A DNA stretch of 64,000 nucleotides from Dictyostelium discoideum (lineage: Eukaryota). Positions 35,705 to 57,960 of this stretch are shown in pieces; position 1 is the first letter of the stretch, and every line of letters begins with the position of its first letter. The notes below the pieces were generated by a model. It did no database searches. It saw only the letters and a program-made list of their open reading frames with translations, and was not told the DNA's origin. The translations under genes and the position numbers were made by a program. The stretch spans positions 6,112,001 through 6,176,000 of the forward strand of contig CM000152.2 in NCBI GenBank assembly GCA_000004695.1, written 5' to 3'.

Positions 35705-38679
35705 TTATTTTTTAGATTTTCTAAATGTTCTATACACAAAGATTTTGAAACGAAGGGATTTGGACAAGGCAATTTTTAAAATAATAATTGCAGAAATAAA
35801 AAATACAACAGAACCAACGATAATACCAGCTAATTGACCTTTAGTTAAAGATGATTCGGATGATGAGCAAATTGAATTTGGAGAATTAGAATTTACAGCT
35901 TGGTTATCTAATAAAAGTGAAAAATCAGGATCTATAGTTACAGAGGTTTCATATTGACCAACCACAATACCAATATACGATTGCACATTATTTTCATTTG
36001 ATATTGAATTTAATTTTGAATCTAATAATTCATTTGTGATTGTTACTATTTTCCCATCAACAATACCACGTTTTAAAAATCTACCATAAATACTATTACT
36101 TGAAACTTGAAGTTTAATATAATTTGAATTATCTAATGTTGTATCACCAAATTCTTTACCTGAACAAATATCATTTTCATTTGATTGAATTTGAGCTTCA
36201 ATTATAACTTGTAAATTATTTAATTTATTTGAGAATTTATATGATGATAATTCTACTGTATATTTAATTGTTGATGGATTCATTATTAATTCTTGATTTG
36301 CAAATGTAATATTACTTTTTTTTTCAAACCATTCTAATGTTACATTAATTGTTGTTGTTATGTTATTATTAATAATTGTTGATTGATAATTTAATATTGT
36401 TGATGAAATACTATTATAATACCATTTATCAATATAATGAATTTTAACTTGTTCACCATTGATTGAATTTACTTCTCTAATTGCTATAATTGATATATTA
36501 CTTTTAACTTGATAATTATTATTAACATTACTAGAATTATTATTGCTATTATCAATAACTGTAGTCAGTTTATCTTCTTTGGTTTTGGTTGTGGTATAAT
36601 TATAACTTTTGAGCTACAATCTAAACCAACATAAGGAGAATAACAAATACCACCTACATTTTCTTTACAATAACCTTGTTCCGAACTACTACATACTGGA
36701 TTACCTAAACAAATTTGAGGTTTATTAGTTGGTGTTGGTGTTGATGGGGTTGGAGTTGGAGTTGGAGTTGGGGTTGGGGTTGAAAATTGAAAATTATAAA
36801 TGGTTGGAGTAATTGTAAAATTATTAGAACTTTCAAGTTTAATTGTGTTATAAACTTCAATATTATTTTTAATAATAATTTCATTAGTATTGGTAACCCA
36901 AATTGAACAATATCATAAACAATTTCAAAAGCACCTTCTATAATTGACCCTGATATTAATTTATCAGAATAATATTGATTAAATCTTTGATCATCATTTG
37001 TTGGTATTTGAATAAATCATACCATATTTATCAAACTTGAAATCTAAGAAAAAACTTAAATTCTGTTAGAAAGATAACTTTAGAATCTATTATTTGTGGA
37101 ATTGATAATTCAATATTTGAATTTAATGCTGTGACAGATATATCTAAACCAACAGAACCTTCTGTTTTACATATATAACTATAATTTTTTTGAAGTTAAA
37201 CCAGATACTGGTACTGATATTCCTAATACATAATTTGGGTTACTACCTCTTAGAAATCCATATGGGAATGATTTAAACTATATTTCTGATTTCCATTATA
37301 GAATTGATTATATTCATGATTATATGGTGCTACTCCTACAGTATCCTCTATACTAAACATATTCATTATATCAATTTCAATTGGAACATTATAAAAACTT
37401 GAACTTGGAATTGGTGATCCTCCAATCACTATACAAATATAACTATTAATTTAAATGATTCATTTTATGTAATACATATATATATATATTAATAATACAT
37501 ACATTTTAAATTTGTTTTAAAATCAAAACTTTCAAATGTTGAATCTTCTTTTCTTCTTAAGAGTGTATCATTTCTTTTTTCAGAATTAGGTTGGACAAAA
37601 CAAATATAAGTCATTTTACCTAAATTACCATAAATCGGTTTTGAAATAGAGTAATAATAAATTCCTTGATTTAAAATTACTACTGGGTATACAACTCTTT
37701 GTAATAATGAACTTGATTGGAATGTTATAATAGTTCCTAAAAATTCGCCCTCAACTGAAGCACTTCCCAATGGATTTTGTTTTAAATTTAAAATTTCATG
37801 TGAATTTGTATTTCTACCAATATATTCCAAATATAAATATAAGCAAACAAAAAAATAAATAATAAATATGTAAATATAAATTCTTTTTTTTTTATTATTA
37901 TTATTTATTGTAATTTTATAAAATACTTACTTGTTGTATTGTATGGTACTAAAATTGTTAAATTTTTATTATTTGAAAAATTTAATTCTGTTTCCCAAAT
38001 TGAAAAGTTTGATGTTTTCAAAATATAATACTTTTCTGTATACTTTATACGAAACATACTTTGACCAAGTGATGTTATTTTAAATAAAGTAGAATCATAG
38101 AATTCACTGATACTAATAGAATCAGGAAAATCTTCTAATTTAAAGATTGATGAAAATTTTAATATTGAACTCCATGTCACATCTTGAATAATGATATATG
38201 AATTTACTTGAAAACCTATACAACAATTAATAAATAAAAAAATGAAAAATGTTACAAAAAATGAAAAGTGTTACAAAAAATAAAAAATGAATAATAAATA
38301 GTAAAAATAATAATTTAATTGATATTTAATATTTACCTTTACATTTAAAATCAATTGTTAAATTATCTTTTAATATATCATTATTTACAGAAAAGTTTAT
38401 TTGATTAGTCCCAACATAAACGTAACTTGTACAAGTAAATAAAGTTGCAGTATTATTTTGACTGGAAATAGAACAACCAATTCCAGAATTCAAATTATTA
38501 ATTGGTTCCGTTGAATTTGTAGCAAGAACAATAAAAACTGTATAGCAAATATTAGTTTTTGTTGTATAGAATTTATGGGTTTCACTTAAATCAAAAAGGG
38601 TGAACTCTTTTCCATTTACAAAAATAATTAAAAAAATTATTACAAAAAAAAAAATAGAAAATATTTTATTTTTAATCAT
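35705..38679 (-). pseudogene. Copy A of the EGF-like type-I membrane glycoprotein family: intact 5' exons, heavily deleted middle, intact 3' TM segment
   Basis: The signal-peptide exon ORF at 38326-38679 is 'MIKNKIFSIFFFVIIFLIIFVNG...'. Exons at 37905-38180 and 37489-37830 are homologous to the long copy at 48.6-53.3 kb (call it F). The 36600-37450 stretch is a collapsed, stop-ridden remnant of F 49700-50900. The 3' ORF at 35705-36283 is 'MNPSTIKYTVELSSYKF...IVGSVVFFISAIIILKIALSKSLRFKIFVYRTFRKSKK'. Confidence 0.6.
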
Positions 38680-39207
38680 TTTTATTTTTACTAAAAAATA
38701 AAAATAAAAAAAAAAAAAAATAAAGTTATAATTAATATATTATTAATATTTTTTTTTTTAATCCTTTTTTTAAATAAAAAAAAAAAAAAAAAAAAAAAAT
38801 TATTTTTAACAGATATTTGTTCTTTGAAAATGAGAGGGTTAGCACAAAAAAAAAAAAAATATCTTAAAAAATCGTAAAAAAGTTTTTTATTTTTTTAATA
38901 TTATTGTTATTTAAAATATCAAAACATAAATAAATTGGCCTTTTAAAAAAAATAATGACAATGAAGAGTTTAAACTGATTCTCTCATTTATCTTTTTTTT
39001 TTTTTTTATATTTTTATTCTAGCCTTCAAAAAATCTTCAAAAGCCAATCATTTGAACCTAAATCAAAAAAGGTGGACTCTATTAAATTTACAAAAAATAA
39101 TTAAAAAACCTATTGCAAAAAAAAAAGATAATTTTTTAAATTTGATCTTACTTATAATAAAATATAAATAATAATAATAATAGTTGTTTTTTTATTTTTT
39201 ATTTTTT

Positions 39208-40251
39208 TTAATAACAAATAATAATAAAAAATATAAAAACAGTAATAATTTTAACAATTTGACCTTTGAATAAAAATGATAATGAAGAAGAAGAAGAAGA
39301 AGAAGAAGAAGTTGATGATTCACTATTTATTTCAGATAATGGTGAGCAAATTGAATTTTTTGAATTGGAATTTGCTGCTTTCTCTAATGAAAGTGAAAAA
39401 TCAGCATTGAAAATTAGACTTGATTGATAAAAAGGAACCGAAATACCAATATATGATTCCACATTATTTGCTTTGGAATTAAAATCAGTAGGATATAAAC
39501 TATTTACTATTGTTGGATAGTTTTCACCATCAGCCAAACAATTTATTGGGAATCTACCTAAAAGAGTATTGTTTGAAACTTGAAGTCTAACATATCTAGA
39601 ATCATCTGGTTCTATTGTATAACCAAATTCTTTACTTGAGCAAATAGGATTATTGGTTTCATTTAATTGGACTTGAACTTTAAATATAATTTGTAAAACA
39701 TTTAAATGGCCTCCAAAAGCAAATGGAGAGAGATTAACTGAATATTTTATTTTTGAAAATTCTTGATCTTCAATTAATTCTTGTATTACATTAACTGTTG
39801 TTGTTACACCACCTTTTTCAATTGTTGTTTGATAATTTAAAATTTTATATATTGAACTACCTGATATTCTCTGAATATTAAGATTATAACTAGTCACTGT
39901 TTCACCATAAACATCAAGTTCTCTGATTTCAGTTAATAAAATAACATATGGCGTTGTTGTTGGTGTTGGTGTTGTTGTTGGTGTTGGTGTTGGTGTTGGT
40001 GTTGGTGTTGGTGTTGGTGTTGGTGTTGGTATAATTATAACTATTGAAGTACAATCAATGCCTGTATAAGGTGTATAACAAATACAACCAATATTTTCTT
40101 TACAATAACCTTGTTCTGGTCCACCACATATTGGATTACCTCGACAATTTTGAAGTGAATTGGTTGGAGTTGTTGTTGGTGTTGGTCCTTGACCTCTAAT
40201 TAAAATAAAACAAAAGAAAAAAATAAAAAGGGTGGATAATCTGTAAAACAT
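39208..40251 (-). CDS. Copy B: short single-exon paralog of the EGF-like membrane glycoprotein family (signal peptide, TP linker, EGF-like Cys motif, domain, TM), 347 aa
   Basis: 'MFYRLSTLFIFFFCFILIRG' signal peptide. 'CRGNPICGGPEQGYCKENIGCICYTPYTGIDC'. (TP)n linker from a coding (ccaacaccaaca)n repeat. '...FLFKGQIVKIITVFIFFIIICY' TM helix. Homologous to the C-terminal half of copy F. Confidence 0.7.
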   Translation of the reverse strand: MFYRLSTLFIFFFCFILIRGQGPTPTTTPTNSLQNCRGNPICGGPEQGYCKENIGCICYTPYTGIDCTSIVIIIPTPTPTPTPTPTPTPTPTTTPTPTTTPYVILLTEIRELDVYGETVTSYNLNIQRISGSSIYKILNYQTTIEKGGVTTTVNVIQELIEDQEFSKIKYSVNLSPFAFGGHLNVLQIIFKVQVQLNETNNPICSSKEFGYTIEPDDSRYVRLQVSNNTLLGRFPINCLADGENYPTIVNSLYPTDFNSKANNVESYIGISVPFYQSSLIFNADFSLSLEKAANSNSKNSICSPLSEINSESSTSSSSSSSSSLSFLFKGQIVKIITVFIFFIIICY

Positions 40252-40557
40252 TTTTTTTTTTTTAACATAAAAAATAAAAATAAAAAAAAAAAAAAATTGA
40301 AAAACAAAAGTATTGAATAAAAAAAAGAAGTTTTCTTTTTGTTTTTTTTTTTGAATTTTTTTTTTTAGAATTTGCATTTTTTTCTAAGGGGAGCTTCATA
40401 GAAAATAAAAAATTAAAAGTAAAAAAAAAAAGAGGCGACAACCCACCAGCACTGCATAAAATTACTTTTCTCCACTTAAATGCTGAAATTATTACACCAA
40501 ACACCTTAATTTTTTCACAAAGAAGATATTTTAGAATTTGAAAGAATATTTAGATAT

Positions 40558-40607
<50 letters not shown>

Positions 40608-40993
40608 AAGGTGTAAATAATGGTAGTTAATTAAATTAATTTTTTTTATTTTATATTTTTTTCATTTAATTATACACTTATATTTTTTTTTTTCAGTTTT
40701 AAAAATTTTTAGTTCTAATTATTTGAATCTTTTAATCCAAAAAATAAAAGAAGTCTTGTTATTTTTTAAAAAAAAAAAAAAAAAAAAATCCCAATCAACT
40801 GCACTTAAATCAAATAATGGTTAATTCTATACCATTTACAAAAACAATTAAAAAACTTATTTCAAAAAAAAAAAAGATAATATTTTAAATTAATAATTAC
40901 TAATAATAAAATTAAAAATAAAAATAAAAATAATAATAGTTTTTTTTTTATTTTTTTTTATTTTTTTTTGCCTTTTTATTTAATTGTTCACAA

Positions 40994-42040
40994 TTAACAA
41001 ATAATTATTAAAAATATAAAAACAGTAATAATTTTAACAAATTGACCTTTGAATAAAAATGATGATAATGAAGAAGAAGAAGAAGAAGAAGTTAATGACG
41101 ATTCACTATTTTCAGATAATGATGAGGATGGAGATGAACTAGATTGTGATTCTTCAGATGGTGAGCAAACTGAATTTGGTGAATTAGAATTTGCTGCTTT
41201 CCCTAGTGAAAATGAAAAATCAGAATCAAAAATTATCCATGATTGATAATTAGGAATTGAAATACCAATATGTGATTCCACATTATTGGCTTTGGATTTC
41301 AAATCGCCAGAATCTAAACTAATTGATGATGTTGATATGATTTTAGCATCAGCGAAACAACTATTTGGGAATCTACTTAAAAGAGTACTATTTGCAACTT
41401 GAAGTCTAACATAGCTAGAATCATCTGGTTGTGTTGTAAAAGCATATTCTTTACTCGAGCAAATAGTCGTATTACTAGTTTCATTTAATTGAACTTGTAC
41501 TTTAAATATAATTTGTAAAACATTTAAAGCACTTTGAAAAGCATATTGTGAGAGATTAACTGAATATTTTATTTTTGTTAATTCTTGATCTTCAAGTAAT
41601 TCTTTTGTTACATTAACTCTTGTTGTTACACCACCTTGTAGAATTGTTGTTTGATAATATGATATATTGTTTAAATTTCCTATTATTCCCCAATTAGTAA
41701 GAATATGACTAGTCACTGTTTTACCATCAAAATCAAGTTCTCTGATTTCAGTTATTAAAATAACATATTCACTATTACTATCATCATCGATTTCAGTGTT
41801 TGGTGCCTCTTGTGATGATATTGGTGTTGGTATAATTATAACTTTTGAAGTACAATCTAAACCTACATAAGGTGAATAACAAACACAACTATTTTCGAAA
41901 CAATAACCTTGTTCTGGTCCACCACATATTGGATTACCTTGACAATTTTGAAGTGAATCAGTTGGCGTTGTTGTTGGTGTTGCTTTAATTAAAACAAAAT
42001 AAAAGAAAAAAATAAAAAGGAAGGATAATCTGGAAACCAT
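40994..42040 (-). CDS. Copy C: second short single-exon paralog of the same family, 348 aa
   Basis: 'MVSRLSFLFIFFFYFVLIKA' signal peptide. 'CQGNPICGGPEQGYCFENSCVCYSPYVGLDC'. Ser-rich stalk and a TM helix. About 60% identical to copy B by eye. Confidence 0.7.
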   Translation of the reverse strand: MVSRLSFLFIFFFYFVLIKATPTTTPTDSLQNCQGNPICGGPEQGYCFENSCVCYSPYVGLDCTSKVIIIPTPISSQEAPNTEIDDDSNSEYVILITEIRELDFDGKTVTSHILTNWGIIGNLNNISYYQTTILQGGVTTRVNVTKELLEDQELTKIKYSVNLSQYAFQSALNVLQIIFKVQVQLNETSNTTICSSKEYAFTTQPDDSSYVRLQVANSTLLSRFPNSCFADAKIISTSSISLDSGDLKSKANNVESHIGISIPNYQSWIIFDSDFSFSLGKAANSNSPNSVCSPSEESQSSSSPSSSLSENSESSLTSSSSSSSLSSFLFKGQFVKIITVFIFLIIIC

Positions 42041-43211
42041 TTTCTTTTTTTTTTTTCTCTAAAAAACATAAAAAAAAAAAAAAATAGAAATTGTATAAAA
42101 AAAAAAGTTAAAAAAACAACATTGAAGATAAAAAAAAAAAATTACGAGTTTCCTTTTTGTTGATTTTTTTTTTTTTTTTTTTTCTTTTTTCTTTTTTACA
42201 GAAATTGCTTTTTTTTAAAAAAAGGATTTTTACTGAGATATTTTTTTTTTTTTTATCTTCATCAATGCTGGTTTTTAAAAAAAAAAAAAAATAAAAAAAA
42301 AAAATAAAAAAAAAAAAAAAAAAATTAAAAATCAATTAATAGAAATTTTAAATTTCATTAAAAAAAAACTTTTCAAATTTCAATTGATTTTTGATAATAT
42401 CCCCCTCCCAATCAAAGTTTAATTCAACTGTTGAAAAAAAAAAAAAACCCAGATTTTTTATTTTATGAGAATAAATATCTATAGGAGAAGCAACTAACAA
42501 TTTCATTTATTAAAATCAATAAAAAAAATAAAATATACAAAAACTAAAATTTATTTATTTATTCTCTTCATTATTTATTTATTTATTTTTTTTTTTTTTT
42601 ATTCAGAATTCTTTCTTGGTTCTTTTTTTCTTTAATCAACGAGGCTTGTTTGATTGTTTGAAGGTTTTATAAACAAAAATTCTTAGACCAATAGATTTTG
42701 TGAATAATTTTTCCAACAACTATAACCATAGTTATATTATTTTAATTTTATTCTAATTAATTATTATTTTCTTTTTAATTAAATTATTTTTAAATTTATA
42801 TTATTATTTTATATGGTGATTTTGTGTGTGTGACATTTTTAATATCTGGTATCTAATATCTATTGTGAAAACCTTGTGAAATTAAAATTAAAATATTTTT
42901 TTTTTTTTTTTTTTTTTAATTACAACGGGAGAAAACCCCTTTAAACAAAACAATAAAACAAATTATTATTATTTTCTGAATTATGTGTGTTATAATAAAA
43001 TGTTGAAACAAAACTATATTCTAAATTATTATTATTTATTTTTGAATTGTTATTATTTAGTTGTGTTTAGTGAGTTTATTATATAAAATGAAACAATTTA
43101 TTAAAATAAATTAAGTTAGTAATAATTAATATTGAATTATTAATTCAATATTAATAGTTATTTTTAAATGTTCTGTTTAGAGCATTTCATGAAATTAAAT
43201 AAATGTTAGTA

Positions 43212-43891
43212 TTAACAAGATATTTTTGAGATCTTGTTACAATCCCAAATTGCAAAGCTGAAAACTGAGTTTAAAATACTATCTTGATTAAATAGATTAT
43301 AAAAATCACTATCTTGAAATGTTTTTGGATCGATTAATGTAAAACCAATTGGTAAATTCAGGTATTTATCTATATTATTAAAATTAAAATATATTATATT
43401 ATCAACTATTAGATCTGTAATATCTACATCATTAAACATAAAAGAAATATCTTTTTAATCTTTTAAATTATCAACACCTATAGATTATTTAATTTTTTTT
43501 AATTATTTAATTAGTTGGTAAATTATATTAAAATTTTCAATTTTTTTGATTTAACTTACTTTTTAATTGTATTGATGATAAAATTACTTGAATATTATGT
43601 GAATAAATGGAGCCTTCTCGATTTGGACTATAAAGTGAAAATGCATCTAAATGATTAAAAAAACCATCTGGTTATTTGTTGAACCATATTTAACGGCATC
43701 GTATAATATTTCAAAAACACCATTTTTAATATTACCAGGAACCAATGACTCTACATGAAATTCCAAAACATTATTATCAATAATTTATACCATATGTATC
43801 TAATATTATAAATCTAATAAAATAATAGAAATTACTTAAATATATGGTTTCATATGATTTTAAGATTGGTATAGTAGCGTCATTGACTATA
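43212..43891 (-). pseudogene. Copy D fragment of the family (part of the penultimate exon plus the start of the large exon), truncated at both ends by insertions
   Basis: The ORF at 43212-43439 'MFNDVDITDLIVDNIIYFNFNNIDKYLNLPIGFTLIDPKTFQDSDF...' aligns to F 50900-51145. 43560-43890 aligns to F 51300-51620. Homology to F stops at 43246 on the downstream side and at the TIR element (43892) on the upstream side. Confidence 0.65.
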
Positions 43892-44095
43892 TGTCCCATG
43901 CCAAAATTACCATATTAATTTCAGCAGCCATATTAATTTTGGCATGGGACTTAGGTCTGCCAAAATTACCTTATTAATTTCAGCAGCCATATTAATTTCA
44001 GCATGTACATAGCTGCCAAAATTAATATGGTAATTTTGGCATAGAAAAAAAAAAAGTCAAAGTCATTTAATTAATAATCATCTCAAATATAAACA
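43892..44095. repeat. Left terminal inverted repeat of the element (hairpin-rich; about 2.5 copies of a ~45-bp 'ccaaaattacc(a/t)tattaatttcagcagccatattaatt' unit)
   Basis: Read directly from the sequence. It pairs with 45841-46080. Confidence 0.75.
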
Positions 44096-44397
44096 AAATT
44101 TTAGTACTAAAATTAATATTATTATTATTTTTATTTTAATAATTATAATAATAAAAAAAAAAAAAAAAAATTTTCATATTATTTTATTTATATCTTTTAT
44201 TTATTTTTATCTTTTTATTTTTATTATTAATTTTATAATTTATTTTCATTTCTTTTTTTTTTAGTTGAAAAAAATTTTTTTATTATTCATTTATTTCTAA
44301 GGCTAACAAAAAAAAAAAATTAAAAATAAAAAAAAAAAATAAAATAAAAAAAAAAAAAAAAAAATTAAAATAATTTTTTTTTTTTAATTTTTTTTTT

Positions 44398-44934
44398 TTA
44401 ATTATCTACTCTTCTACTTACTCTTTTGTTACTAACAGATGAAGTTTCGTTTGAAAATCTTTTGGTGAAAAAATCAGCATCAGATTGTAATTGATTAGCT
44501 CTTTTTTTACCCGTTTTGTTTTTGTTTGATTGAGTTGTGATTCCACCATTATTGGAAGTTGTTGCAGCTTCATGTGTTGATCTAACTTCGGTGGTAGAGT
44601 GCTCGATTGCTTTTCCAACTAGGTCATCTGTTGATTTTCTTTTGGTTATTTCGATATCCCTTTGCAATTTATTTTTACTTGAGAGTTTGGTGGCCTCTAT
44701 TCTAGAAGTAGGCTCAGTATTGTAATAAGCCTTTATAATAGCAGAATGACTATCTGCTTTATAATGATTACTGATGTGCTGTTGACACTGGTTTTGATTA
44801 ATCATATGAGAGACACCATCTTCATCTTTGTTAAGCCTAACCTTCTCTATAATCTTCACTAAGTCTTTTGGGTACCAATTTTTTCTTTTTATCTTTATCA
44901 ATATAAAACACTTCTTTAATAGTTGCCGTACCAT
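44398..44934 (-). CDS. Element-internal ORF (178 aa), function unknown. It overlaps out of frame an upstream 75-aa ORF (44837-45064) across an A-rich slippery tract
   Basis: 'MVRQLLKKCFILIKIKRKNWYPKDLVKIIEKVRLNKDEDGVSHMINQNQCQQHIS...KRVSRRVDN*'. The codons are noticeably GC-richer at third positions than surrounding genes (gcc acc ctc cag cac atc gag). No DDE or other transposase motif was recognised. Confidence 0.35.
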   Translation of the reverse strand: MVRQLLKKCFILIKIKRKNWYPKDLVKIIEKVRLNKDEDGVSHMINQNQCQQHISNHYKADSHSAIIKAYYNTEPTSRIEATKLSSKNKLQRDIEITKRKSTDDLVGKAIEHSTTEVRSTHEAATTSNNGGITTQSNKNKTGKKRANQLQSDADFFTKRFSNETSSVSNKRVSRRVDN

Positions 44935-45362
44935 ATTCTACATTCTCAACAACATACTGTTTATCCAAAATGTTTTTCCAATAGCTTGTATTTTGTCCAC
45001 TCAATTTGGTATTATGAAATTTATAATCTATTTTAAATTTTACATCTTCGTCATATTTTTCCAAGAGTTTTTTTAATTTATTTTTATTATTTTTTCAATT
45101 TCTGTTGCAGAAAGTTGATTATTTAATTTATTGTCTTTACTGAAGACCATTTTTTGGAACGAAAACTTTAAAAAAATAAAAAAATAAAAAAAAAAATACT
45201 TTTTTTTTTTAATTTTTTTTTTTATATTTTTTTTTTTATATTTTTTTTTTTTAAATTTTTTTTTTTAATTTTTTTTTTTTATTTTATTTTTTTAAAGTTT
45301 CGAACAATTATATATAAAAAAAAAGTAAAAGATATCCCTTCGGTTAATTAAATAATAGTAAT

Positions 45363-45406
<44 letters not shown>

Positions 45407-45408
45407 TA

Positions 45409-45505
<97 letters not shown>

Positions 45506-45840
45506 CTTAAATATACAAAAAAAAAATAAAAAAATAAAAAAATAAAAAAAATAAAAAAAAAAAAATAGAATGAAATGAAATAAAATAAAATAAAAAAAAG
45601 AAATACAGAATTTCTTTAAAGAAACTTATTTCGAAATTGTTTAAACAATCATACAGTTTAAAATTAAATAAATTGTTTTAAACCACCACTTTTTTTGAAC
45701 ACATGAAAATAAATAAGAAATAAAAATAAAAAGATAAAAAAAGATTTTTTTTTTTTTTTTTATTTTATAATTATTCTTGTCGTCAGTATTGTTACTATAA
45801 TTAATCCCATGAGTTTTTTTTTATTATTATTTTTAATTCT

Positions 45841-46080
45841 TTTATATTTGAGATGATTATTATTAATTAAATGACTTTGAGTTTTTTTTTTTATTTTTCT
45901 ATGCCCAAAATTACCATATTAATTTCAGCAGCCATATTAATTTCAGCCTAAAATAGTTGGTCTGTGCATGCCAAAATTAATATGGCTGCTGAAATTAATA
46001 TGGTAATTCTAGCAGACATAAGTCCCATGCCAAAATTACCATATTAATTTCAGCAGCCATATTAATTTTGGCATGGGACA
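45841..46080. repeat. Right terminal inverted repeat of the element
   Basis: Reverse complement of 43892-44095 with a few substitutions. Confidence 0.75.
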
Positions 46081-46339
46081 ACTATACTCGAAGGTGTCAC
46101 TTGTGACTTTAGATAGAAACATTTGAAAATATAGTAAAAATGGATAAAAAAAAAAGAAAATAAAATAATTAAAAAAAAACCAAATAATAAAAAGTTTCAT
46201 TCAATATATATATATTTTTTTAGTATTTATTTTATTTTAATAAAATATGTTAAAAATTATAATGTTTCAATTTTTAATATATTTATTATTTTTTTTTTAT
46301 TATTTTTTATTTTATTTTTTAATATATTTTGTTGTAGGG

Positions 46340-46935
46340 AATTTTTTTTGATATTTCGCTTTCTAAACGGCAGTGAATTTTTACACTAAAATACACTATT
46401 TATACATAGTGTAAAAATTCACTAAAAATTTTTTTTTTTTTTTATAAATTAAAAACAATTTATTTAATCAAAATAATAAAAAAACTAATTTTGAACAATT
46501 ATTTGTTGTTTAAGAATTAAATAACAATTTAAATTGTTAGATTTGAGCCAATTTTTTTTATTTTTTTTATTTTTTTATTTTTTTTTTAATAATTTATAAA
46601 ATGGCATTGCAAACTTTTATTAAAATTTAATTGTGAGAAATTTTACTATTGTAATTTCACGGGAAAAAAAAACCTAGTAAAATGTTAAAATATAATTAAT
46701 TAAATTAAATTTTAATAAAAGTTTGTAATGCTAAATTTGAGAGTCATCTTACTCTCAAATTATTTAAATAATTTAATTTGAGAGTCATCTTACTCTCAAA
46801 TTATTTAAATAAATTTTTTATTTTTTTATTTTTTTTTTAATAATTTTTAAATAAATTGTTATTTAATTTTTATTAATTTATTTAAATAATTTGAGAGTCA
46901 TCTTACTCTCAAATTATTTAAAATACATACTTGTA
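46340..46935. repeat. Cluster of palindromes and hairpin repeats next to the element and the 5' exons of family copy E
   Basis: A 17-bp-stem hairpin 'agtgaatttttacacta...tagtgtaaaaattcact' lies at 46370-46420. A 25-bp inverted repeat 'gcattgcaaacttttattaaaattt' / 'aaattttaataaaagtttgtaatgc' lies at 46604-46632 / 46707-46735. Three copies of a ~38-bp unit 'aatttgagagtcatcttactctcaaattatttaaataa' lie at 46733-46771, 46772-46813 and 46886-46925. Each unit holds an 8-bp-stem hairpin (tttgagag...ctctcaaa). Confidence 0.7.
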
Positions 46936-46939
46936 TAGT

Positions 46940-47686: not shown

Positions 47687-47729
<43 letters not shown>

Positions 47730-48110: not shown

Positions 48111-48372
48111 TAATGTTTTTTTTGTTTTAAATTCGACCCGAGAGGAATTTTAAAATTTGTGAAAAAAATTTTTGGGGAAAAAAAAAAAAAAAATTTAATC
48201 GTAAATCCAAATGCTCAAATTTTTAAATTCCATCAAGCCAAACTTCGAACAAAAAAAAAATAGGATTTTTTTTTCTAAAAATAAAGATATTTTTTGGGCG
48301 TGAAATAGATAATTAAGTCTAATAGTCATTTTTTTTTTTTATTAATAATAAAAATTTTTTAATTGAATTTTT

Positions 48373-48419
<47 letters not shown>

Positions 48420-48619
48420 AGGAATATTCAATAAAACAATCAATTTAAAGAATAAAAAAAAAAAAATAAAAAAAAAAAAAAACAAAAAAAAGAGAATAAT
48501 TTTTGTCTGTTTGTAAAGGATTTATTTATTTATTTATTTTTTATCAATAAAATAAATAAAAAAAAAAAAAAAGAATAATTTTTGGTTTGCAAAGGATTTA
48601 TTCGTTTTTTTCTTTTTTA

Positions 48620-51183
48620 TCAATAAGTCTTCTTTGATTTTTTGAAGATTTTATAAATAATGATTCTAATATGAATTGATTTTGAGAAGAGAATTATTCC
48701 AACAATTATAACTAAAACTATGAAAAATACAATAGAACCAACAATAATACCAGCTAGTTGACTTTTGGTTAAAGATGATCCGGATGATGAGCAAATTGAA
48801 TTTGGGGAATTAGAATTTACAGCTTGATTATCTAATAAAAGTGAAAAATCAGGATCTATAATTACAGAGGTTTCATATTGACCAACCACAATACCAATAT
48901 ATGATTGTACATTATTTTCATTTGATATTGAATTTAATTTTGAATCTAATAATTCATTTGCGATTGTTACTGTTTCACCATCAACAATACCACGTTTTAA
49001 GAATCTACCATAAATACTATTACTTGAAACTTGAAGTTTAATATAATTTGAATTATCTAATGTTGTATCACCAAATTCTTTACCTGAACAAATATCTTTT
49101 TCATTTGATTGAATTTGAGCTTCAATTATAACTTGTAAATTATTTAATTTATTTGAGAATTTATATGATGATAATTCTACTGTATATTTAATTGTTGATG
49201 GATTCATTATTAATTCTTGATTTGCAAATGTAATATTACTTTTTTTTTCAAACCATTCTAATGTTACATTAATTGTTGTTGTTATGTTATTATTTATAAT
49301 TGTTGATTGATAATTTGATATTGTTGATGAAATACTATTATAATACCATTTATCAATATAATGAATTTTAACTTGTTCACCATTGATTGAGTTAACTTCT
49401 CTAATTGCTATAATTGATATGTTACTTGTAACTTGGTAATTATTATTAACATTACTAGAATTATTATTTTTATTATCAATAATTGTAGTTGGTTTATCTT
49501 CATTTGGTTTTGGTTGTGGTATAATTATAACTTTAGAGCTACAATCTAAGCCAACATAAGGAGAAAAACAAATACAACCAACATTTTCTTTACAATAACC
49601 TTTTTCTGAACCGCCACATACTGGATTACCTAAACAAATTTGAGGTTTATTAGTTGGTGTTGGTGTTGGAGAAATGGTACTTGTTGGTGTTGGAGTTGGT
49701 GCTGAATAATTGAAATAATAAACTTTTGGGAAAATAGTAAAAGTGTTTGATAGAATAGTTGGTTGCTGAATATTGGTTAAATGTACATTGATTGAATCGT
49801 TTGTTGGTTTAATATTTTTAATTAAAATTACAGAATCACTCGGTACTGTCATTGCTGAAGAATAAGATTCACCATTACTTGATAATATCACAACTTTATT
49901 GGTTGATTTAAAACCTCTACCATATAACCAAAGATCACCACCATCATTATCTATAGCAGATGAGTCAGTAATGATTGGTTGAGTTACTGAAAACTCTTTT
50001 GTTTCTACAAACCAAGTAAAACCTGAATCTTTTAAATCACTTGCGCTATAACCTCTATATGATCCACCTCTATTAATAAATCCATAAACTGAAATTAAAA
50101 ATCCATATGGATGTGAAAATCCAATTGGTACTTCCATTGTGCATGTGTATTCAATATCTGTTCTATTCTTTGTAACAATGGTTGAAATACATTCATGAAT
50201 TCTTGAATTCATATCTGTTATATATACTATTGGATATTGATCATCTTTTAAACCGTCTAAATCCTGTGCATCAAAATCAAATACTATTAATCTATCTAAT
50301 GACCCAACATCAATAGATGATCTTGATACCCAAAATCTTTTTAACTCTGGTAGTGGTGAATCAATTTGATTACACATATTTAATGTTGAAACTTGTAATA
50401 TTGACATATCATTAAGATAATTAATAAATGGATTCGCACTTGAGTCAAGGCTAATTTGCCCATCCAATTCAATATTTGTAAGACGTTTATAATATTTATT
50501 TACATTACCAAATGTATCAATGAAAACTGCATAATAAATTTCATAATTTTGAGGTACACAATCATTTAAAATATATGGTATACTTATTATATAATTTCCT
50601 TTCCATTTATCACCACTACCAACTACCATATCACTTAATTCCAATGTATAATTATATAATGAACTATCAATCGAACCTCTAATAGTAACATATCCATCTT
50701 TGAAACCATTAATTTCATCTTCAATTGTAAATAACCATCCTAATGTTGTGTCTGGATATTTAACTATACTTGTAACTATTGGACCATAACTATCGAATTT
50801 TGTATTATCAATTCTTAATTGGTATTCATCAGATAATTGAGTATTAAGTATATAATTCTCTTTATTAAATATTAACATCCAATCTAAAACACCTGGTGAT
50901 GTATTTGCTGGTATTTTAAATTTAATATAAAATCTTGAATTTATTTCATCCCAAATTGCAAAACTGTAAACTGAGTTTAAAATACTAACTTGATTATATT
51001 CATTAATAAAATCACTATCTTGTAGTGTTCTTGGGTCAGTTAATGTAAAACCAATTGGTAAATTCTTATAATTATCTATATTATTAAAACTAAAATATAT
51101 TATATTATCAACTATTTGATCTGTAATATCAACATCATTAAACATAAAAGAAATATCTTTTATATCTTTTAAATGGTCAACAC
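48620..51183 (-). CDS. Copy F (long, most intact family member): terminal large exon (EGF-like motif, domain, TM, stop)
   Basis: Acceptor ctatag at 51184-51189. An 841-aa ORF contains 'CLGNPVCGGSEKGYCKENVGCICFSPYVGLDC', a (TP)n linker and the 'IVGSIVFFIVLVIIVGIILFSKS' TM helix with a basic tail 'KIFKKSKKTY*'. Confidence 0.7.
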
Positions 51184-51265
51184 CTATAGATTATTTAATT
51201 TTTTTTAATTATTTAATTAGTTGGTAAATTATATTAAAATTTTCAATTTTTTCAATTTAACTTAC

Positions 51266-51940
51266 TTTTTAATTGTATTGAAGGGAAAATTACTTGAATA
51301 GTATGTGATAAAATGGAGTAGTCTCGATTTGGACTATAAACTGAAGATGAGTCTAAGTGATTATAAAAACTTATTGAATTTTTTGTTGAACCATATTTAA
51401 CGGCATCGTATAATATTTCAAAAACACCATTTTTAATATCACCAGAAATCAATGAGTCTACATGAAATTCCAAAACATTATTATCAATAATAGTTTGAAA
51501 ATAATTTAAACCATATGTATCTGATATCATAAATCTAATTAAATAATTAAAATTATTTAAATATATGGTTTCATATGATTTTAAGATTGGTTTAGTTGTG
51601 TCATTGACAAAACTTGAAGGTGTCACTCGCAACTCTGGGCCATTTCCAGAAAGAAAGGTCATATGCAAGTAAAAATAATTTTTATTTGAAAAACCACGAG
51701 TTGGTAAAGACATTTTTATTTTGTAGTTTAAATTGTTTCCACTTGAAAATCCAAATGGAAATACTTGATATTTATTATCACCAAATATACCATCCCCATA
51801 GGAATACTTTAAGTATTGAGAATCATACTTGAATCCAATGTCACTATAAGACAATTCAAATGAATATAATGACATTGAACTAGTACTATTATCAACAGTT
51901 GTATTTATTATTGAAGATATTAAACCTTGATCAATTTGGC
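51266..51940 (-). CDS. Copy F, penultimate exon
   Basis: Acceptor gaaaag|gc at 51941-51942. Encodes '...NSTSSMSLYSFELSYSDIGFKYDSQ...VIFPSIQLK'. Donor gtaagt at 51265, phase 1, joins in frame to 51183. Confidence 0.6.
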
Positions 51941-52078
51941 CTTTTCCAAAAAATTAAAAAAATTAAAAAAACAAGAAAATAAAAAAAAACATGAATTAGA
52001 ATTGTGTTTTAATTTTAATTAATAATAACAATAATAAAAATAATAATAATTTGCACTCTAATTATTTAAAATACATAC

Positions 52079-52396
52079 TTGTATAGTTTATAAAAATTGG
52101 AATACCTTGATAAGCTGTGTTATTTATTTGTTCATAAAGAGAATAATTTTGTAAACCATCGTTTACAACCGAAAGGTAACTAATGTATGTCATATTACCT
52201 ATTGATCCAGAAATAGGTCTTGGTAAAGTTGAATACACCGAGTTAATTAAAACCAATGGATTAATTGGTCTTTGTAATGATGATACTGAATTAAATTTTA
52301 TAACACTTCCAAACAATAACATAATTTCACAATTGCGGCCATTTGGAAATTGGATTAATTCTACAATTTCTTCATTCTTATTACTATTTTTATATT
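52079..52396 (-). CDS. Copy F, exon 3
   Basis: Acceptor ttaaaag. Encodes 'YKNSNKNEEIVELIQFPNGRNCEIMLLFGSVIKFNSVSSLQRPINPLVLINSVYSTLPRPISGSIGNMTYISYL...IFINYT'. Donor gtatgt, phase 1. Confidence 0.55.
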
Positions 52397-52492
52397 CTTT
52401 TAAATTAATACAAACTATATTAATAAAATGAATTTTTAAAAAAAAAAAAAAAAAAAAATTAATTTTAAAAAATAATAATAATAAAATCTTAC

Positions 52493-52768
52493 TTGTTATA
52501 TTATATGGTACTGAAATTGTTATTATTGTACCAGAATTACTAAAAGATATTTCCCAATTAGAGTTTGATAATCTTGGAATATAAAATTTTTCATAATATC
52601 GAATTCTATAATAATTTTTACCAAGTGATGTTAAATCAAATGAATAATAACTATCAATAGTAGTAATTATAGTTGAATCTAATAAACCATTTAGTTTAAC
52701 AATTGATGAAAATTTATTAACTATACTCCATGTTACTTCTTGTATTATTTCAATATTAATTTCATATC
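52493..52768 (-). CDS. Copy F, exon 2
   Basis: Acceptor aataag|ga. Encodes 'YEINIEIIQEVTWSIVNKFSSIVKLNGLLDSTIITTIDSYYSFDLTSLGKNYYRIRYYEKFYIPRLSNSNWEISFSNSGTIITISVPYNIT'. Donor gtaaga, phase 1. The frame was checked codon by codon. Confidence 0.55.
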
Positions 52769-52833
52769 CTTATTATATTAATATTAAAATAGTAATAGTA
52801 ATAATAATAAATTGTATTAGTTATATATTTTGG

Positions 52834-52893
<60 letters not shown>

Positions 52894-52899
52894 CAGATT

Positions 52900-53279
52900 T
52901 GAGATTTATAATTCCTTTTACATTCATAATAAAATAAAAGGGAACTTTTTGAAATATCATTGTTAACATTAAAGGTTGTTGAATATTTGAAAAAATTAAG
53001 AGTTGCATATTCTGAGCAAAAAAAAGTTGATGAAGTTATATTCCTTCTATAAATAAACAAAACTGATTGTCACTACCTAATGTTTGTATAGAATCTGCAG
53101 TTTCATTTATTTTTGAACAAAGAATAAACGTTGGTATGAAGAACAATATGGATGTAATGTTTGTTCTGGATAGAATATATATATTTTATCTAGATAAGTA
53201 ATTGAATAATCTTGTCCTTTTATTAATAAAATAAATGTTAATAAAAAAAGCCTGATTATTCCAAGTTTAGCCATTCTAA
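52900..53279 (-). pseudogene. Copy F, signal-peptide exon 1 with two apparent 1-nt deletions
   Basis: 'MAKLGIIRLFLLTFILLIKGQDYSITYLDKIYIFYPEQTLHPYCSSYQRLFFVQK' then a stop. Homology to copy A exon 1 ('...FSVNNDILKDNLTIDFKCKG' ~ '...FNVNNDISKSSLLFYYECK' plus gtaatt donor) continues only after shifting frame twice, in the runs 'caaaaataaat' and 'gaaggaatataa'. Confidence 0.45.
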
Positions 53280-53774
53280 AAGAAGAATTGTTTGATGGTT
53301 TTTTTTTATTATTTTCAGTTTGAACAAAAAAAATATGGTGAAAAATAAAAAATATTATAAAAAAAAAAAAAGTTTTTTGTAAAAACCAAATAAAAAAATA
53401 ATTTTTTTTTTTTATTTTTTTTTGTAAAAATAAGATATTTATAAAAGGGGCATTTGATCAAAAAAAAAAAAAAAAATCATACACAAAATTTTTTGAGATA
53501 TTTATTTTTATAAAAAATATCTCAAAAAAAAAAAAAGTTAACAGTAATATTTTTTATTTGTTTATTTTTAATGTTTTTGGTAATAAAAATTAATAAAAAC
53601 ATTTAAAATTATATTATATTTATTAAATAAAAAAAAAAAAAAAAAAAATAACTATTTCTTAATGTTTTGAACAAAAATTTTTTTTTTTTTTTTATTTAAT
53701 ATATATAATATAATTTTAATTTTAATGTTTTTATTAATTTTTATTACCAAAGAAGTCTCCTAAGGAAATTGCTG

Positions 53775-53809
<35 letters not shown>

Positions 53810-53918
53810 AACAGAAATATTTAATAAAGAATTTAATTTAAAGAATAAAAAAATGTTTAGAAAAAAAAAAAGAATTTTTGTTGGTCTGTAAAGGATTTAT
53901 TTTTTTATTTCTTTTTTA

Positions 53919-56900
53919 TCAATAAGACTTTTTTGATTTTTTGAAGATTTTATAAATAATGATTCTAATACGCACTGATTTTGAGAAGAGAATTATTCCA
54001 ACAATTATAACTAAAACAATGAAAAATACAATAGAACCGACAATAATACCAGCTAGTTGACTTTTGGTTAAAGATGATTCGGATGATGAGCAAATTGAAT
54101 TTGGAGAATTAGAATTTACAGCTTGATTATCTAATAAAAGTGAAAAATCAGGATCTATAGTTACAGAGGTTTCATATTGACCAACCACAATACCAATATA
54201 TGATTGTACATTATTTTCATTTGATATTGAATTTAATTTTGAATCTAATAATTCATTGGTGACTGCCACTGTTTTACCATCAACAATACCACGTTTTAAG
54301 AATCTACCATAAATACTATTACTTGAAACTTGAAGTTTAATATAATTTGAATTATCTAATGTTGTATCACCAAATTCTTTACCTGAACAAATATCATTTG
54401 TCAATATAATGAATTTTAACTTGTTCACCATTGATTGAATTTACTTCTCTAATTGCTATAATTGATATATTACTTTTAATTTGATAATTATTAACATTAC
54501 TAGAATTACTATTGCTATTATCAATAGCTGTAGTTGGTTTATCTTCATTTGGTTTTGGTTGTGGTATAGTAATAACTTTAGAGCTACAATCTAAGCCAAC
54601 ATAAGGAGAATAACAAATACAACCAACATTTTCTTTACAATAACCTTGTTTTGAACCACTACATACTGGATTACCTAAACAAATTTGAGGTTTATTAGTT
54701 GGTGTTGGTGTTTAAGTTGGAGTTGAAGTTTGAGTTTGAGTGGGTGTTGGTGTTGGAGTTGGAGTTGGTACCGAGTAATTAAAATAATAAACTTTTGGGA
54801 AAATAGTAAAAGTATTTGATAGAATAGTTGGTTGCAGTGTGAAAATCCAATTGGTACTTCCATTGTGCATGTGTATTCAATATCTGTTCTATTCTTTGTA
54901 ACAATGGTTGATATACATTCATGAATTCTTGAATTCATATCTGTTATATAAACTATTGGATATTGGTCATCTTTTAAACCGTCTAAATCATGTGCATCAA
55001 AATCAAACGTTATTAATCTATCTAATGACCCAACATCAATAGATGATCTTGATACCCAAAATCTTTTTAACTCTGGTAGTGGTGAATCAATTTGATTACA
55101 CATATTTAATGTTGAAACTTGTAATATTGACATATCATTAAGATAATTAATAAATGGATTCGCACTTGAGTCCTTGTAATTTGGTGGATTTAAATCAAAA
55201 TTTGTTTGACGTTTATAATATTTATTTCTATTACCAAATGAATCAATGAGAACTGCATAATAAATTTCGTAATTTTGAAATACAAAATCGTTTAAAATAT
55301 ATGGTATACTTATTATATAATCTCCTTTCCATTTATCACCGCTACCAACTACCATATCACTTAATTCCAATGTATAATTATATAATGAACTATCTACTGA
55401 ACCTCTAATAGTAACATATCCATCTTTGAAACCATTAATTTCATCTTCAATTGTAAATAACCATCCTAGTGTTGTTGTCAAGCTATGATCTTGATATTTA
55501 ACTATAATTGTAACTATTGGACCATAACTATCGAATTTTGTATTATCAATTCTTAATTGGTATTCATCAGGTAATTGAGTATTAAGAAAATGATTCTCTT
55601 TATTAAATACCAACATCCAATCTAAAACACCTGGTGATGTATTTGCTGGTATTTTAAATTTAATATAAAATCTTGAATTGATTTCATCCCAAATTGCAAA
55701 GCTGTAAACTGAATTTAAAGTATTAAATACTTCAAAGTTAATTCCATTATAGAAGTCACTATCTTGTAATGTTCTTGGATCGATTAATGTAAAACGAATT
55801 GGTAAATTCTTATAATTATCTATATTATTAAAACTAAAATACATTATATTATCAACTATTTGATCTGTAATATCAACATCATTAAACATAAAAGAAATAT
55901 CTTTTACATCTTTTAAATAATTAACATCTACATATTATTATTTATTAAGAATAAAGTAATAATAAATTATAGTTAATAGTTTTATTCATAAATATCGTCA
56001 TTTTTTTTTTTTTTTTTTTTTTACTTACTTTGTTCTATAGTTGGTAAATTAATTCTTAAATTTGGAGTTTCAATAGAGAAAGGTTGATTTTGGTTAAATA
56101 ACGATGACTTATCTAAATGATTATAAAAATAATATGAATTACTTGTTGAACCATATTTAATGACATCATAAAATATTTCGAAAACACCATTTTTAATATC
56201 ACCAAAAACCAATGACTCTACATAAAATTTAATTATTTTATTATCAATATTGACTTGAATAAAATTCAAACCATATGTATCTGATATTGTAAATCTAATT
56301 AAATAATTAAAATTATTTAAATAAATAGTATCAAATTCATTTAAAGTTGGTATGAAATTATTATTATTATTATTATTGATTAAATTTGAATGTGAAACTT
56401 GTAATGCCAAACCATTACTACCACCATAATCTGTCATTTGCAAAATAAAATATTGTTGACTTGAAAAACCACGATTTGGAACAGACATTTTCATAGTGTA
56501 GTTTAAATTATTTCCACTTGAAAATCCAAATGGAAATACTTTGTATTCATTCTCAGATTCTCTATTACCTCCTCCTCCTCCACTAAAATAGGTATACCAT
56601 TGAGAATCATATGTGAAATTAAAATCACTATACATTAATTCTAATGTATAAAATGGCATTGAACTATTACTATAATCAACACTTGTATACTTTATTAACT
56701 GTTTTAAAGAATAAGAATTTAAAACTTTTTATAACATTGGTTAGACCGATAATGATAAAAATAATGATAATATTAAAAAATACATACTTGTATAGTTTGT
56801 TGGAATTTGAATAGTTTGTAATGTTGAATCATCTTTTTGTTTATAAAGGGTATAATATTGTAAATAACTATATAAAACTGAAAGGTAATCAATGTAAGTG

Positions 56901-57105
56901 ATATTACCAATTGATCCAGATATTGGTCTTGGTAAAGATGATATTAAGATGTTGTTATTTAAAACTAATGGATTAACTGGTCTTTGTAATGATGATGTTG
57001 ATTTAAATTTTATAACACTTCCAAAAATATTTAAAACTTTACAAGTTCCATCTTTTGGAAATTGAACTAATTCATTAATCTCTTCACTATTTTTAAATTC
57101 TATAG

Positions 57106-57169
<64 letters not shown>

Positions 57170-57960
57170 ATTTTAAAAAATGAATACTAAATATTAATTA
57201 AAATTAATAATAATAATAATAATAATAAATTCTTACTTACTTGTTATATTATATGGTGTTGAAATTGTAATATTTGTACCAGAATTGTTAAAAGATATAT
57301 CCCATTTAGTTTTTAATAATCTTGAAATAAAATAACCTTCATAATATAGAATTCTATAATAATTTTTACCAAGTGATATTAATTCAAATAATTCTCCATC
57401 ATCACCATTATCAAGTAAATTAATAATAGTTGAATCTAATAAACCATTTAAATTTACAATTGATGAATATTTATGTACTATACTCCATGTTACTTCTTGA
57501 ATTATTTCAATGTTAATGCTAAATTCTAAAAAAAAGATTAGTGACATATATATATATAAATTATAAAATAATGAATGGTATTATAATTATAATTACTTTT
57601 ACATTCATAATTAAAAGTGAACCTTTTGAAATATCATTGTTTACAAAAAAAGAAATACTTGAGTTTGTTGAAAAATTGATATTTTGATTTTCAAAGCATA
57701 AGAAAATTGATGATGTTGAATTTCCAACTATTAATGAACAAACTTGATTATCAATACCACTTAATTTAGTAATTGGATTTGCAGTAACACTTGTTTTTTT
57801 AACTAAAATATAATATTGAGGTATTTCACATTATTTATTTGATGTTTTGGTTGGATAGAATGTATTTGTGTTATCCAAAAAACTTAAGATGTAATCTTGA
57901 CCTTTTACTAATAAAATAAATAATAATAATAAAAAAAGAATTAAAATTCTGAGTTTAGCT
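53919..57960 (-). pseudogene. Copy G: family member with lost start codon and two internal deletions in the large exon
   Basis: Relative to F the large exon is split into ORFs 54675-55889 and 53919-54431. About 400 nt (F ~49700-50100) and ~300 nt ('WYYNSISSTISNYQ...IIEAQIQSNEK') are missing, and translation derails after 'EVPIGFSH'. The exon-2 (57233-57547), exon-3 (56760-57100) and penultimate (56021-56659) equivalents are intact ORFs. Exon 1 at ~57560-57960 begins 'ATAGCTAAACTCAGA', where F and E have ATGGCTAAACTT / ATGGTTAAACTT, and it has an in-frame stop. No phase-1 AG acceptor exists for the penultimate exon. Confidence 0.6.

Follow-up and report, generated by a model that had tools for sequence, protein, structure and literature searches.

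Two surface systems of Dictyostelium discoideum and one protein fold are the closest described points of comparison for the locus reported here. In the tgrBC hotspot, clustered paralogues occur together with truncated copies, copy numbers differ between strains, and gene conversion or recombination takes place (PMC12745789). ComC (DDB_G0271692, 1501 amino acids, aa), a developmental cell-surface protein, is described in the supplement of one study as carrying 14 epidermal growth factor (EGF) domains and resembling MEGF11 (PMC4931340), and its mutant, according to that supplement and a second paper, aggregates and streams aberrantly and sporulates only in wild-type chimeras (PMC4931340; PMC2873529). 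The window analysed here (64,000 nucleotides of D. discoideum AX4, contig CM000152.2, positions 6,112,001 to 6,176,000) holds a genuine tandem cluster whose members all belong to a single family of cell-surface glycoproteins, uncharacterised and confined to social amoebae; it comprises one intact long gene, three dead copies and two fast-evolving short genes, B and C. It is a fairly ordinary locus and does not represent a new type of system. The long and the short genes share an EGF-like module followed by a supersandwich domain, a fold that binds carbohydrate in many enzymes.

The likeness to ComC lies in the signal peptide, the EGF sequence, the membrane-proximal supersandwich (the Pfam model is named after ComC) and the single transmembrane (TM) segment; the part held in common is the membrane-proximal module only, a link examined at the Pfam level. 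ComC has a multi-EGF body, whereas the present family has one EGF-like module and an unrelated N-terminal beta-sandwich region of ~1000 aa; in a profile search with the family alignment, ComC was not among the matches listed, close relatives filling the list. TgrB1 and TgrC1, polymorphic IPT/TIG proteins of allorecognition in Dictyostelium, share with the array a type-I membrane topology, chains of immunoglobulin (Ig)-like beta-sandwiches, clustered paralogues with truncated copies, copy differences between strains, and gene conversion or recombination. They are divergently transcribed ligand-receptor pairs, whereas the units here all lie on one strand and the long gene is conserved, with a ratio of nonsynonymous to synonymous substitution rates (dN/dS) of ~0.3. 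A first-pass annotation of the locus, made from the letters without database searches, had seen no TgrB/C-like IPT/TIG architecture. The Pfam search agrees: no unit has a TIG or IPT match at E<=0.1, so the array is not part of the Tgr family, and the resemblance of the Ig-like folds is generic. GLMP (glycosylated lysosomal membrane protein, PDB 8r8q_B / 6nyq_C) has the same topology of supersandwich, TM segment and short tail; it differs in having no EGF module and in being an accessory subunit of a lysosomal transporter, and at ~10% identity homology is not established. The supersandwich domains of GH65, GH15, GH63, GH94, GH116, GH38 and aldose 1-epimerase (4-10% identity) are enzymes or enzyme parts, unlike the proteins of this locus, which show neither an evident catalytic domain nor evident conservation of catalytic residues. 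The AX4 paralogues DDB_G0291027, DDB_G0291045 and DDB_G0272492 share the domain order, the length of ~1400 aa, the single TM segment and the short basic tail; only the truncated architecture of B and C departs from theirs.

Unit map and family identity

The open reading frame (ORF) of 841 aa at 48620-51145 is 100% identical to DDB_G0282707 on D. discoideum AX4 chromosome 3 (6.36-Mb contig). Exact matches were also obtained for the ORFs at 40994-42040 (DDB_G0282701), 44398-44934 (DDB_G0282703) and 53919-54431 (DDB_G0282709), and DDB_G0282809 spans 57547-54675. The GC content is 17-26% throughout the window. When P0003, a full-length relative of 1414 aa found in another strain, and then the intact F protein of the AX2 lineage served as tblastn queries, six paralogous units, all on the minus strand, were delineated within 35705-57962. 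The paralogy is not due to chance, since the high-scoring segment pairs have E-values of 0 to 1e-24. The units, with the residues of the long protein to which they align, are as follows.

57908-53973, minus strand: unit G, aa 18-1397, with gaps at aa ~908-1022 and ~1164-1245 (tblastn; feature extent 53919-57962)
53274-48620, minus strand: unit F, aa 1-1403, full length (tblastn)
48092-46917, minus strand: unit E, aa 1-329, with internal stops (tblastn)
43896-43242, minus strand: unit D, aa 434-629, truncated (tblastn)
42040-40994, minus strand: unit C, 348 aa, aligning to F aa ~1054-1347 (tblastn)
40251-39208, minus strand: unit B, 347 aa, aligning to F aa ~1061-1348 (ORF, tblastn)
38679-35705, minus strand: unit A, aa 18-~550 joined to aa 1028-1397 (tblastn)

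E and D are counted as one unit, being two relics of one long copy split by ~3 kb of inserted DNA. The map bears out the first-pass proposal of one paralogous family of EGF-bearing type-I membrane glycoproteins, arranged in tandem on the minus strand over ~22 kb.

The family, which the first-pass annotation could not assign to a named Dictyostelium adhesion system, is a large dictyostelid one that Pfam catalogues and that carries a ComC supersandwich module. A full-length member is a type-I membrane protein of ~1400 aa encoded by five exons. From the N-terminus it consists of a signal peptide, an unassigned region, DUF7743, DUF7035, DUF7034, DUF8390, a Pro/Thr linker, DUF7949, ComC_SSD, a TM helix and a Lys-rich tail of ~20 residues. 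The 841-aa ORF of F scores 110 bits for DUF7035, 118 for DUF7034, 53 for DUF7949 and 43 for ComC_SSD (cut-offs 24-27), and the ORF of F exon 4 matches DUF7743 at 44 bits; DUF8390 is taken from the precomputed annotation of an AX4 model (P0001) and its orthologues. The Cys-rich EGF-like signature recognised by eye corresponds to DUF7949 (E 3e-15 to 6e-14), and its six cysteines (C504, C510, C518, C524, C526 and C535) are invariant in 33 family members. This module also gives a weak Teneurin EGF match (E 0.007) and is modelled by AlphaFold2 (AF2) as a small two-stranded hairpin at low pLDDT. The membrane-proximal domain of ~250 aa, also seen at first reading, is Pfam ComC_SSD (PF22933), a galactose-mutarotase-like supersandwich domain (SSD). 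The hexamer coding repeat reported for the Thr/Pro linker was recovered: B carries (CCAACA)13.7 at 39949-40030, and the repeats of A (36727-36782) and G (54697-54768) are of the (CCAACT)n type. The TM helix and Lys-rich tail, attributed to the family as a whole, are confined to the long copies; B and C end in a short hydrophobic segment instead.

F is a bona fide member of a large, dictyostelid-wide, Pfam-catalogued and unstudied family. At E<=1e-3 an exhaustive HMMER scan retrieved 798 cluster representatives, and at E<=1e-30 the number is 383; nearly all have 1300-1450 aa, and members occur in D. firmibasis, D. citrinum, D. purpureum, Polysphondylium violaceum, Heterostelium album and Tieghemostelium lacteum. 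Its paralogues in AX4, including the three named above, are 42-48% identical across the 841-aa query. Two more distant proteins combine parts of the long form with other domains: P0053 (1816 aa, EukProt) carries the DUF7743/DUF7035/DUF7034 module with protein kinase and LIM domains, and P0054 (2325 aa, JGI metagenome) carries the DUF7035/DUF7034 part with a MACPF domain, a fusion of gene models being possible in both cases. These combinations suggest that the N-terminal DUF7743/7035/7034 module may be a reusable extracellular binding unit.

Gene F and the AX4 reference

The exons of F were projected from P0003 on contig L001 and have exact GT-AG boundaries.

53274-52916, minus strand: F exon 1
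52768-52493, minus strand: F exon 2
52414-52079, minus strand: F exon 3
51940-51266, minus strand: F exon 4
51183-48620, minus strand: F exon 5

The AX4 annotation of F, DDB_G0282707, is an N-truncated model of 1117 aa that begins at 52193. Exons 2-5 are open and identical to those of the AX2-lineage assembly L005 (GCA_054883475.1). We infer that L005 is AX2-214, the sole laboratory strain in the data set of PMC12745789, since it is near-identical to the window. Over nearly all of ~20 kb it shows no substitutions relative to the window, and the one coding difference is a patch in F exon 1; most of the remaining differences concern the length of homopolymers or AAT microsatellites.

53115-52899, minus strand: reference-only patch covering part of F exon 1 and its splice donor (comparison with L005)

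The patch contains 1-bp deletions at 53115 and 53043, a GT>GG change of the donor at 52914, and ~10 substitutions. The AX4 reference stands alone at every one of these positions, against a consensus of AX2, two divergent strains and the paralogues E and G. It adjoins a perfect 59-nt poly(A)/poly(T) run in the first intron of F (52834-52892), which is 24 nt shorter in the AX2-lineage assembly; a second perfect 59-nt run lies at 57109-57167 in intron 2 of G, between the equivalents of exons 2 and 3. Conversion of the patch by E or G was considered and rejected, the variants matching no paralogue. In L005, F is intact and encodes 1403 aa, beginning MAKLGIIRLFLLTFILLIKGQ, with a signal peptide judged from sequence. 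At the other end of the protein, in the 841-aa ORF, AF2 predicts a helix spanning residues 794-838, after which comes KIFKKSKKTY.

F had been classed as near-intact with a frameshifted signal exon. Because the differences in the patch are peculiar to AX4, and an independent assembly of the same lineage encodes 1403 aa, the frameshift is in all likelihood an error of the reference sequence, and the annotated 1117-aa DDB_G0282707 would then be N-terminally truncated. The earlier classification is thus superseded: F is very probably intact.

Dead copies and the inserted element

G, E/D and A are true pseudogenes, as the first reading of these copies had it, with deletions, frame changes, stops and the loss of a start codon. 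In G, ATA replaces ATG at 57962-57960, and two internal deletions remove aa ~908-1022 (at ~54835) and aa 1164-1245 (at ~54395). Within the equivalent of the single exon 5 of F, the frames of G run -3/-2/-3, and stops occur in the segments of exon 1 and of aa 1023-1163. The AX4 annotation splits the copy into DDB_G0282809 (57547-54675, 824 aa) and DDB_G0282709 (54431-53919, 170 aa). The N-terminal exons of G have no close orthologue in the other genomes (<=73%), and its exon 5a is 88% identical to F; G is an old, mosaic, dead copy.

E is a relic of exons 1-3, with deletions of 14 nt and 1 nt in exon 1, and strains R and Y retain orthologous fragments. D ends at aa 629 and is followed by sequence resembling the 3' flank of a long gene; in strains R and Y the D copy runs on to the C-terminus (928-aa and 836-aa models). 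The E/D copy is broken in R and Y too, each time differently.

In A, an N-terminal part (38679-36829) is joined at ~36828 to a C-terminal part (36828-35705), and near 36580 the frame shifts from -2 to -1 (36586/36574). The two parts are orthologous to the A gene of strain Y at 89-90% and 94% identity, respectively, and the ~1.6 kb missing between them corresponds to Y 13569-15206. Derivation of the C-terminal part from an F- or D-type copy, which would make A a chimera, was rejected on its 94% identity to the A gene of Y versus 89% to the F and D types. Orthologues of A are intact in R (1458 aa), Y, Z and D. citrinum. The lesions of A are real, because they are identical in the independent AX2-lineage assembly.

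The same comparison bears on whether the apparent relics A, D and G might stem from repeats that were collapsed or mis-joined when AX4 was assembled in the Sanger era. In favour are the repetitive, AT-rich sequence with its long homopolymers, and F exon 1, which does look erroneous. Against this, an independent assembly of the same lineage from long and short reads reproduces 34382-55156 with the 3' part of G and both of its deletions, F, E, the transposon, D, C, B and A; the coding relics outside the F patch show no substitutions, and the few single-base differences are non-coding and mostly inside the inserted element. An assembly artefact is thus a very slim prospect for the dead copies.

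E and D are separated by the following element, with further AT-rich inserted DNA beyond it to ~46910.

43889-46080, strand not given: inserted mobile element of ~2.2 kb with long imperfect inverted termini

Its arms pair at 43892-44210 / 45703-46080 (70%) and at 43934-44009 / 45963-46038 (91%). The ORF at 44398-44934 (minus strand; DDB_G0282703, 178 aa) is multi-copy in AX4 and clusters at >=90% with the N-terminus of the 769-aa DDB_G0270824, which scores 32.4 bits for Integrase_H2C2 (cut-off 25.5) and 22.9 bits for rve_3, below its cut-off of 26.5. Since this ORF of 178 aa is all that it carries, the copy is probably non-autonomous. It may be a DDT or Tdd-4-like integrase-type DNA transposon. 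The element is absent from the E/D site in strains R and Y. Together with the inverted termini and the integrase-related multi-copy ORF, this absence bears out the first-pass call of a transposon insertion beside the copies. A 59-bp tandem subrepeat (2.2 copies, 43899-44024) lies inside one terminus, and a perfect 41-bp unit containing a palindrome (1.9 copies, 46734-46812) lies within the inserted DNA. Strain R (L001/L002) has a different and larger insertion of ~9.4 kb at about the same E|D break (combined ~17.8-27.1 kb), with ORFs of 236 aa and 155 aa that have no Pfam match.

Strain comparison and history of the array

The copy content of the array differs between strains and related species.

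Strain R (GCA_054859385.1): F (1414 aa), a fragment of E, other DNA of ~9.4 kb, D (928 aa), C (348 aa) and A (1458 aa), with neither G nor B
Strain Y (GCA_054859205.1): F (1403 aa), E.D (246 + 836 aa), C (345 aa), and B fused to A (1718-aa model)
D. citrinum: an F-type long gene, one short gene (350 aa) and an A-type long gene
D. dimigraforme: at least 7 long copies

Some automatic models run across gene boundaries, namely one of 1531 aa in L005 (11031-19217, D-C-B-A) and the 1718-aa model of strain Y (L003:10001-16337, B+A). These fused models are annotation artefacts that would distort counts of the family.

Within strain Y, F and D have a synonymous divergence (dS) of 0 over 300 codons (L004 F 10001-14599; L003 D 4283-7500). 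F and A (L003 10001-16337) differ at dS 0.3-1.1 in the first 500 codons of exon 5 and at dS 0.05-0.10 in the last ~250 codons, which encode the EGF module, SSD and TM segment. Gene conversion evidently homogenises the 3' module of the array, to judge from these values. The birth-and-death turnover proposed at first sight thus holds in that copy content varies by strain, and needs amending in that the history of the array is not purely of this kind, because gene conversion also acts.

The ancestral order was probably long (F-type), short, long (A-type), as still found in D. citrinum. The array would have expanded by duplication in the D. discoideum clade and would later have been remodelled by deletions, by insertion of the DNA transposon and by conversion of the 3' module. 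In the NC4/AX laboratory lineage this would have left F as the sole functional long gene, with G, E/D and A dead and B and C live.

The short genes

C (DDB_G0282701, 348 aa) and its paralogue B (347 aa) are intact, as had been recognised: both ORFs are complete, and the frames stay open across the five genomes compared, D. citrinum among them. Each has its own signal peptide, followed directly by the Pro/Thr linker, the EGF-like DUF7949, the supersandwich domain, a Ser-rich stalk and a hydrophobic C-terminus of 12-15 residues with no cytoplasmic or Lys-rich tail. Their sequences end in ...SSSSSLSSFLFKGQFVKIITVFIFLIIIC (...FLFKGQFVKIITVFIFLIIIC), an ending conserved in the copies of AX4, R, Y, Z and D. 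citrinum; it resembles, and may be, a signal for a glycosylphosphatidylinositol (GPI) anchor. DUF7949 is their only Pfam match and the whole long-form architecture is not shared; B and C are a derived sub-architecture of the family. Comparison of the 5' flanks and signal exons of short and long forms returned homopolymer noise only, except for the E-F and B-C pairs.

In this search the short form was found only in genomes of the D. discoideum clade and in D. citrinum. Strain Y has an orthologue of B of 341 aa, and no copy of B was found in strain R. The D. citrinum orthologue (L007:8552-9604, GCA_054859145.1; 350 aa) is syntenic, between two long genes, and has the tail-less C-terminus; its source annotation gives no Pfam match. 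Orthologues of C are 75-83% identical between strains (3-4 genomes compared).

Selection on long and short genes

All dN/dS values were obtained by the Nei-Gojobori method, with flanking genes as controls. Exon 5 of F has a dN/dS of 0.28-0.36 (dS ~0.10-0.12), and the controls give 0.25 for the NF-YA-like neighbour (versus strain Y) and 0.27-0.38 for the large upstream gene. F is under ordinary purifying selection, like its flanking genes, and its product is 92-93% identical between divergent strains or cryptic species (3-4 genomes, not a population sample). The short genes yield higher values: 0.95-1.10 for C and 0.88-0.92 for B between strains, and 1.24-1.28 for B versus C. The first-pass description of the family as rapidly turning over and diversifying thus applies at most to the short copies (dN/dS 0.9-1.1) and not to F, which evolves like its neighbours.

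A ratio near 1 could mean that the whole cluster, B and C included, is a graveyard of redundant genes undergoing neutral decay, the short copies being young fragments that have not yet acquired stops. The ratios of B and C do not differ significantly from 1, four of the six units are damaged in the reference, and the automatic annotations are inconsistent, as the fused models of 1531 and 1718 aa illustrate. Several observations speak against such decay. Between orthologues of C there are 5-7 indels per pair, all of them multiples of 3. When neutral evolution was simulated, using branch lengths and a substitution spectrum taken from the data, all three lineages of C were stop-free together in 0 of 5000 runs (P < 1/5000). 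The D. citrinum short orthologue, at dS ~0.4, has an omega of 0.76-0.80 overall and of 0.5-0.67 in the EGF module and SSD. Within C, the EGF module has a dN/dS of 0.19-0.34 in two comparisons with strain Y, the AX4-R pair having too few changes, and the N-terminal half of the SSD has 2.9-5.4 (Fisher p 0.084, 0.035 and 0.009). F, for its part, is under purifying selection. Decay of the entire cluster is accordingly quite improbable. Because of the in-frame indels, the simulation, the D. citrinum ORF and the differences in omega between domains, simple pseudogene drift does not account for B and C, which are weakly constrained or diversifying rather than dead. Positive selection in the N-terminal half of the SSD is suggestive only.

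Structure and proposed function

The AF2 model of the 841-aa ORF (mean pLDDT 69, pTM 0.36) shows a string of beta-sandwich domains and a TM helix. That of the short copy C has a confident core at residues 90-295 (pLDDT 85-95). In Foldseek searches against the PDB the matches were multi-Ig/FN3 ectodomains (LILRB/PirB, plexin, gp130, NCAM and bacterial adhesins) and the luminal domain of GLMP; among relatives by sequence, none with a solved structure was found.

By analogy with these proteins, the function of the family would be surface recognition or glycan binding. The long form may be a cell-surface receptor of the recognition or adhesion type, in which the EGF and supersandwich module would contact a glycan or a partner membrane protein. 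Such a contact is proposed because of the carbohydrate-binding domains of the supersandwich fold, the likeness to GLMP, and the role of ComC in intercellular communication. The short forms would be membrane-tethered, fast-evolving versions of the EGF and supersandwich module alone.

Genes bordering the array

The array is bordered by two plus-strand genes. Upstream of the units, a large gene (59071-64000, plus strand) runs past the end of the window; its orthologues elsewhere have 2741-3138 aa with no Pfam match on record, and it forms the conserved upstream boundary in R, Y and D. citrinum, the examined genomes for which this edge of the array could be recovered. On the other side, a 517-aa Asn-rich ORF (32529-34082, plus strand) contains a motif that, by eye only, resembles the NF-YA/HAP2 CCAAT-binding subunit. 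No tRNA genes were found in the window.

Discussion

The features that the array shares with tgrBC raise the possibility that it is a diversifying adhesion or kin-recognition locus like tgrB1/C1, in which rapid birth and death together with positive selection make new surface specificities. The copy content varies among the AX4, R, Y and D. citrinum loci, the short copies have a dN/dS of ~1 that rises to 2.9-5.4 in the N-terminal half of the SSD, the ectodomain consists of Ig-like beta-sandwiches as in many recognition receptors, and fragments lying beside live genes, together with gene conversion, resemble the tgrBC hotspot model (PMC12745789). The sole intact long gene, however, evolves like its housekeeping neighbours, at a dN/dS of ~0.3 and with the 92-93% identity between cryptic species reported above; TIG domains and divergently transcribed ligand-receptor pairs are absent; and the signal of positive selection is weak and post hoc. 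We therefore regard a locus of this kind as unlikely. A narrower version, which we hold to be somewhat less likely still, concerns the short genes: B, C and their D. citrinum orthologue might form a new class of tail-less, probably GPI-anchored EGF and supersandwich proteins, derived from the long receptors, duplicated in the D. discoideum clade and under diversifying selection on one face of the SSD. They might act as polymorphic decoys or modulators of the long receptors, or be targets in an arms race against cheaters, prey or pathogens, drawing variants from nearby dead copies through gene conversion and amounting to a second tgrBC-like system.

The explanation that we prefer is a tandem array of one dictyostelid surface-protein family, remodelled by duplication, deletion, transposon insertion and gene conversion, with F, B and C live and the other copies dead in the laboratory lineage, and with a likely function in surface recognition or glycan binding. 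We give this reading as a whole a probability of roughly 75%. Several points weigh against it. A genuine cluster of mutations in the AX3/AX4 lineage has a small chance of accounting for the F patch, the AX2-214 identity of L005 being itself indirect. The signal in the N-terminal half of the SSD was obtained with non-independent pairs after a post hoc partition and would fail correction for multiple tests, and a dN/dS of ~1 in B and C is equally expected under very weak constraint. Overall confidence is medium for the two AF2 models (mean pLDDT ~70), and analogy of fold and topology is the only source for surface recognition, glycan binding and GPI anchoring, the last of which may apply to B and C. 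Expression or protein evidence was found for no copy, the gene identifiers of the locus are absent from the searchable paper text, and no published function was found for any family member.

At face value, the locus adds one more clustered, partly decayed surface-protein family to a genome known for such families, and its impact is modest. An error in the AX4 reference probably leaves DDB_G0282707 with 1117 aa and no signal peptide, where the gene in fact probably encodes a membrane protein of the secretory pathway of 1403 aa. A family of ~800 cluster representatives gains a structural description, which leads to a testable role in binding a glycan or a partner. The short, fast-evolving and apparently maintained sub-form represented by B and C is newly recognised. 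Finally, the array offers loss-of-function variation of natural origin, in that the A-type gene, dead in the laboratory lineage, remains intact in wild relatives; this difference and the short sub-form could both serve to probe what the family does in social development.

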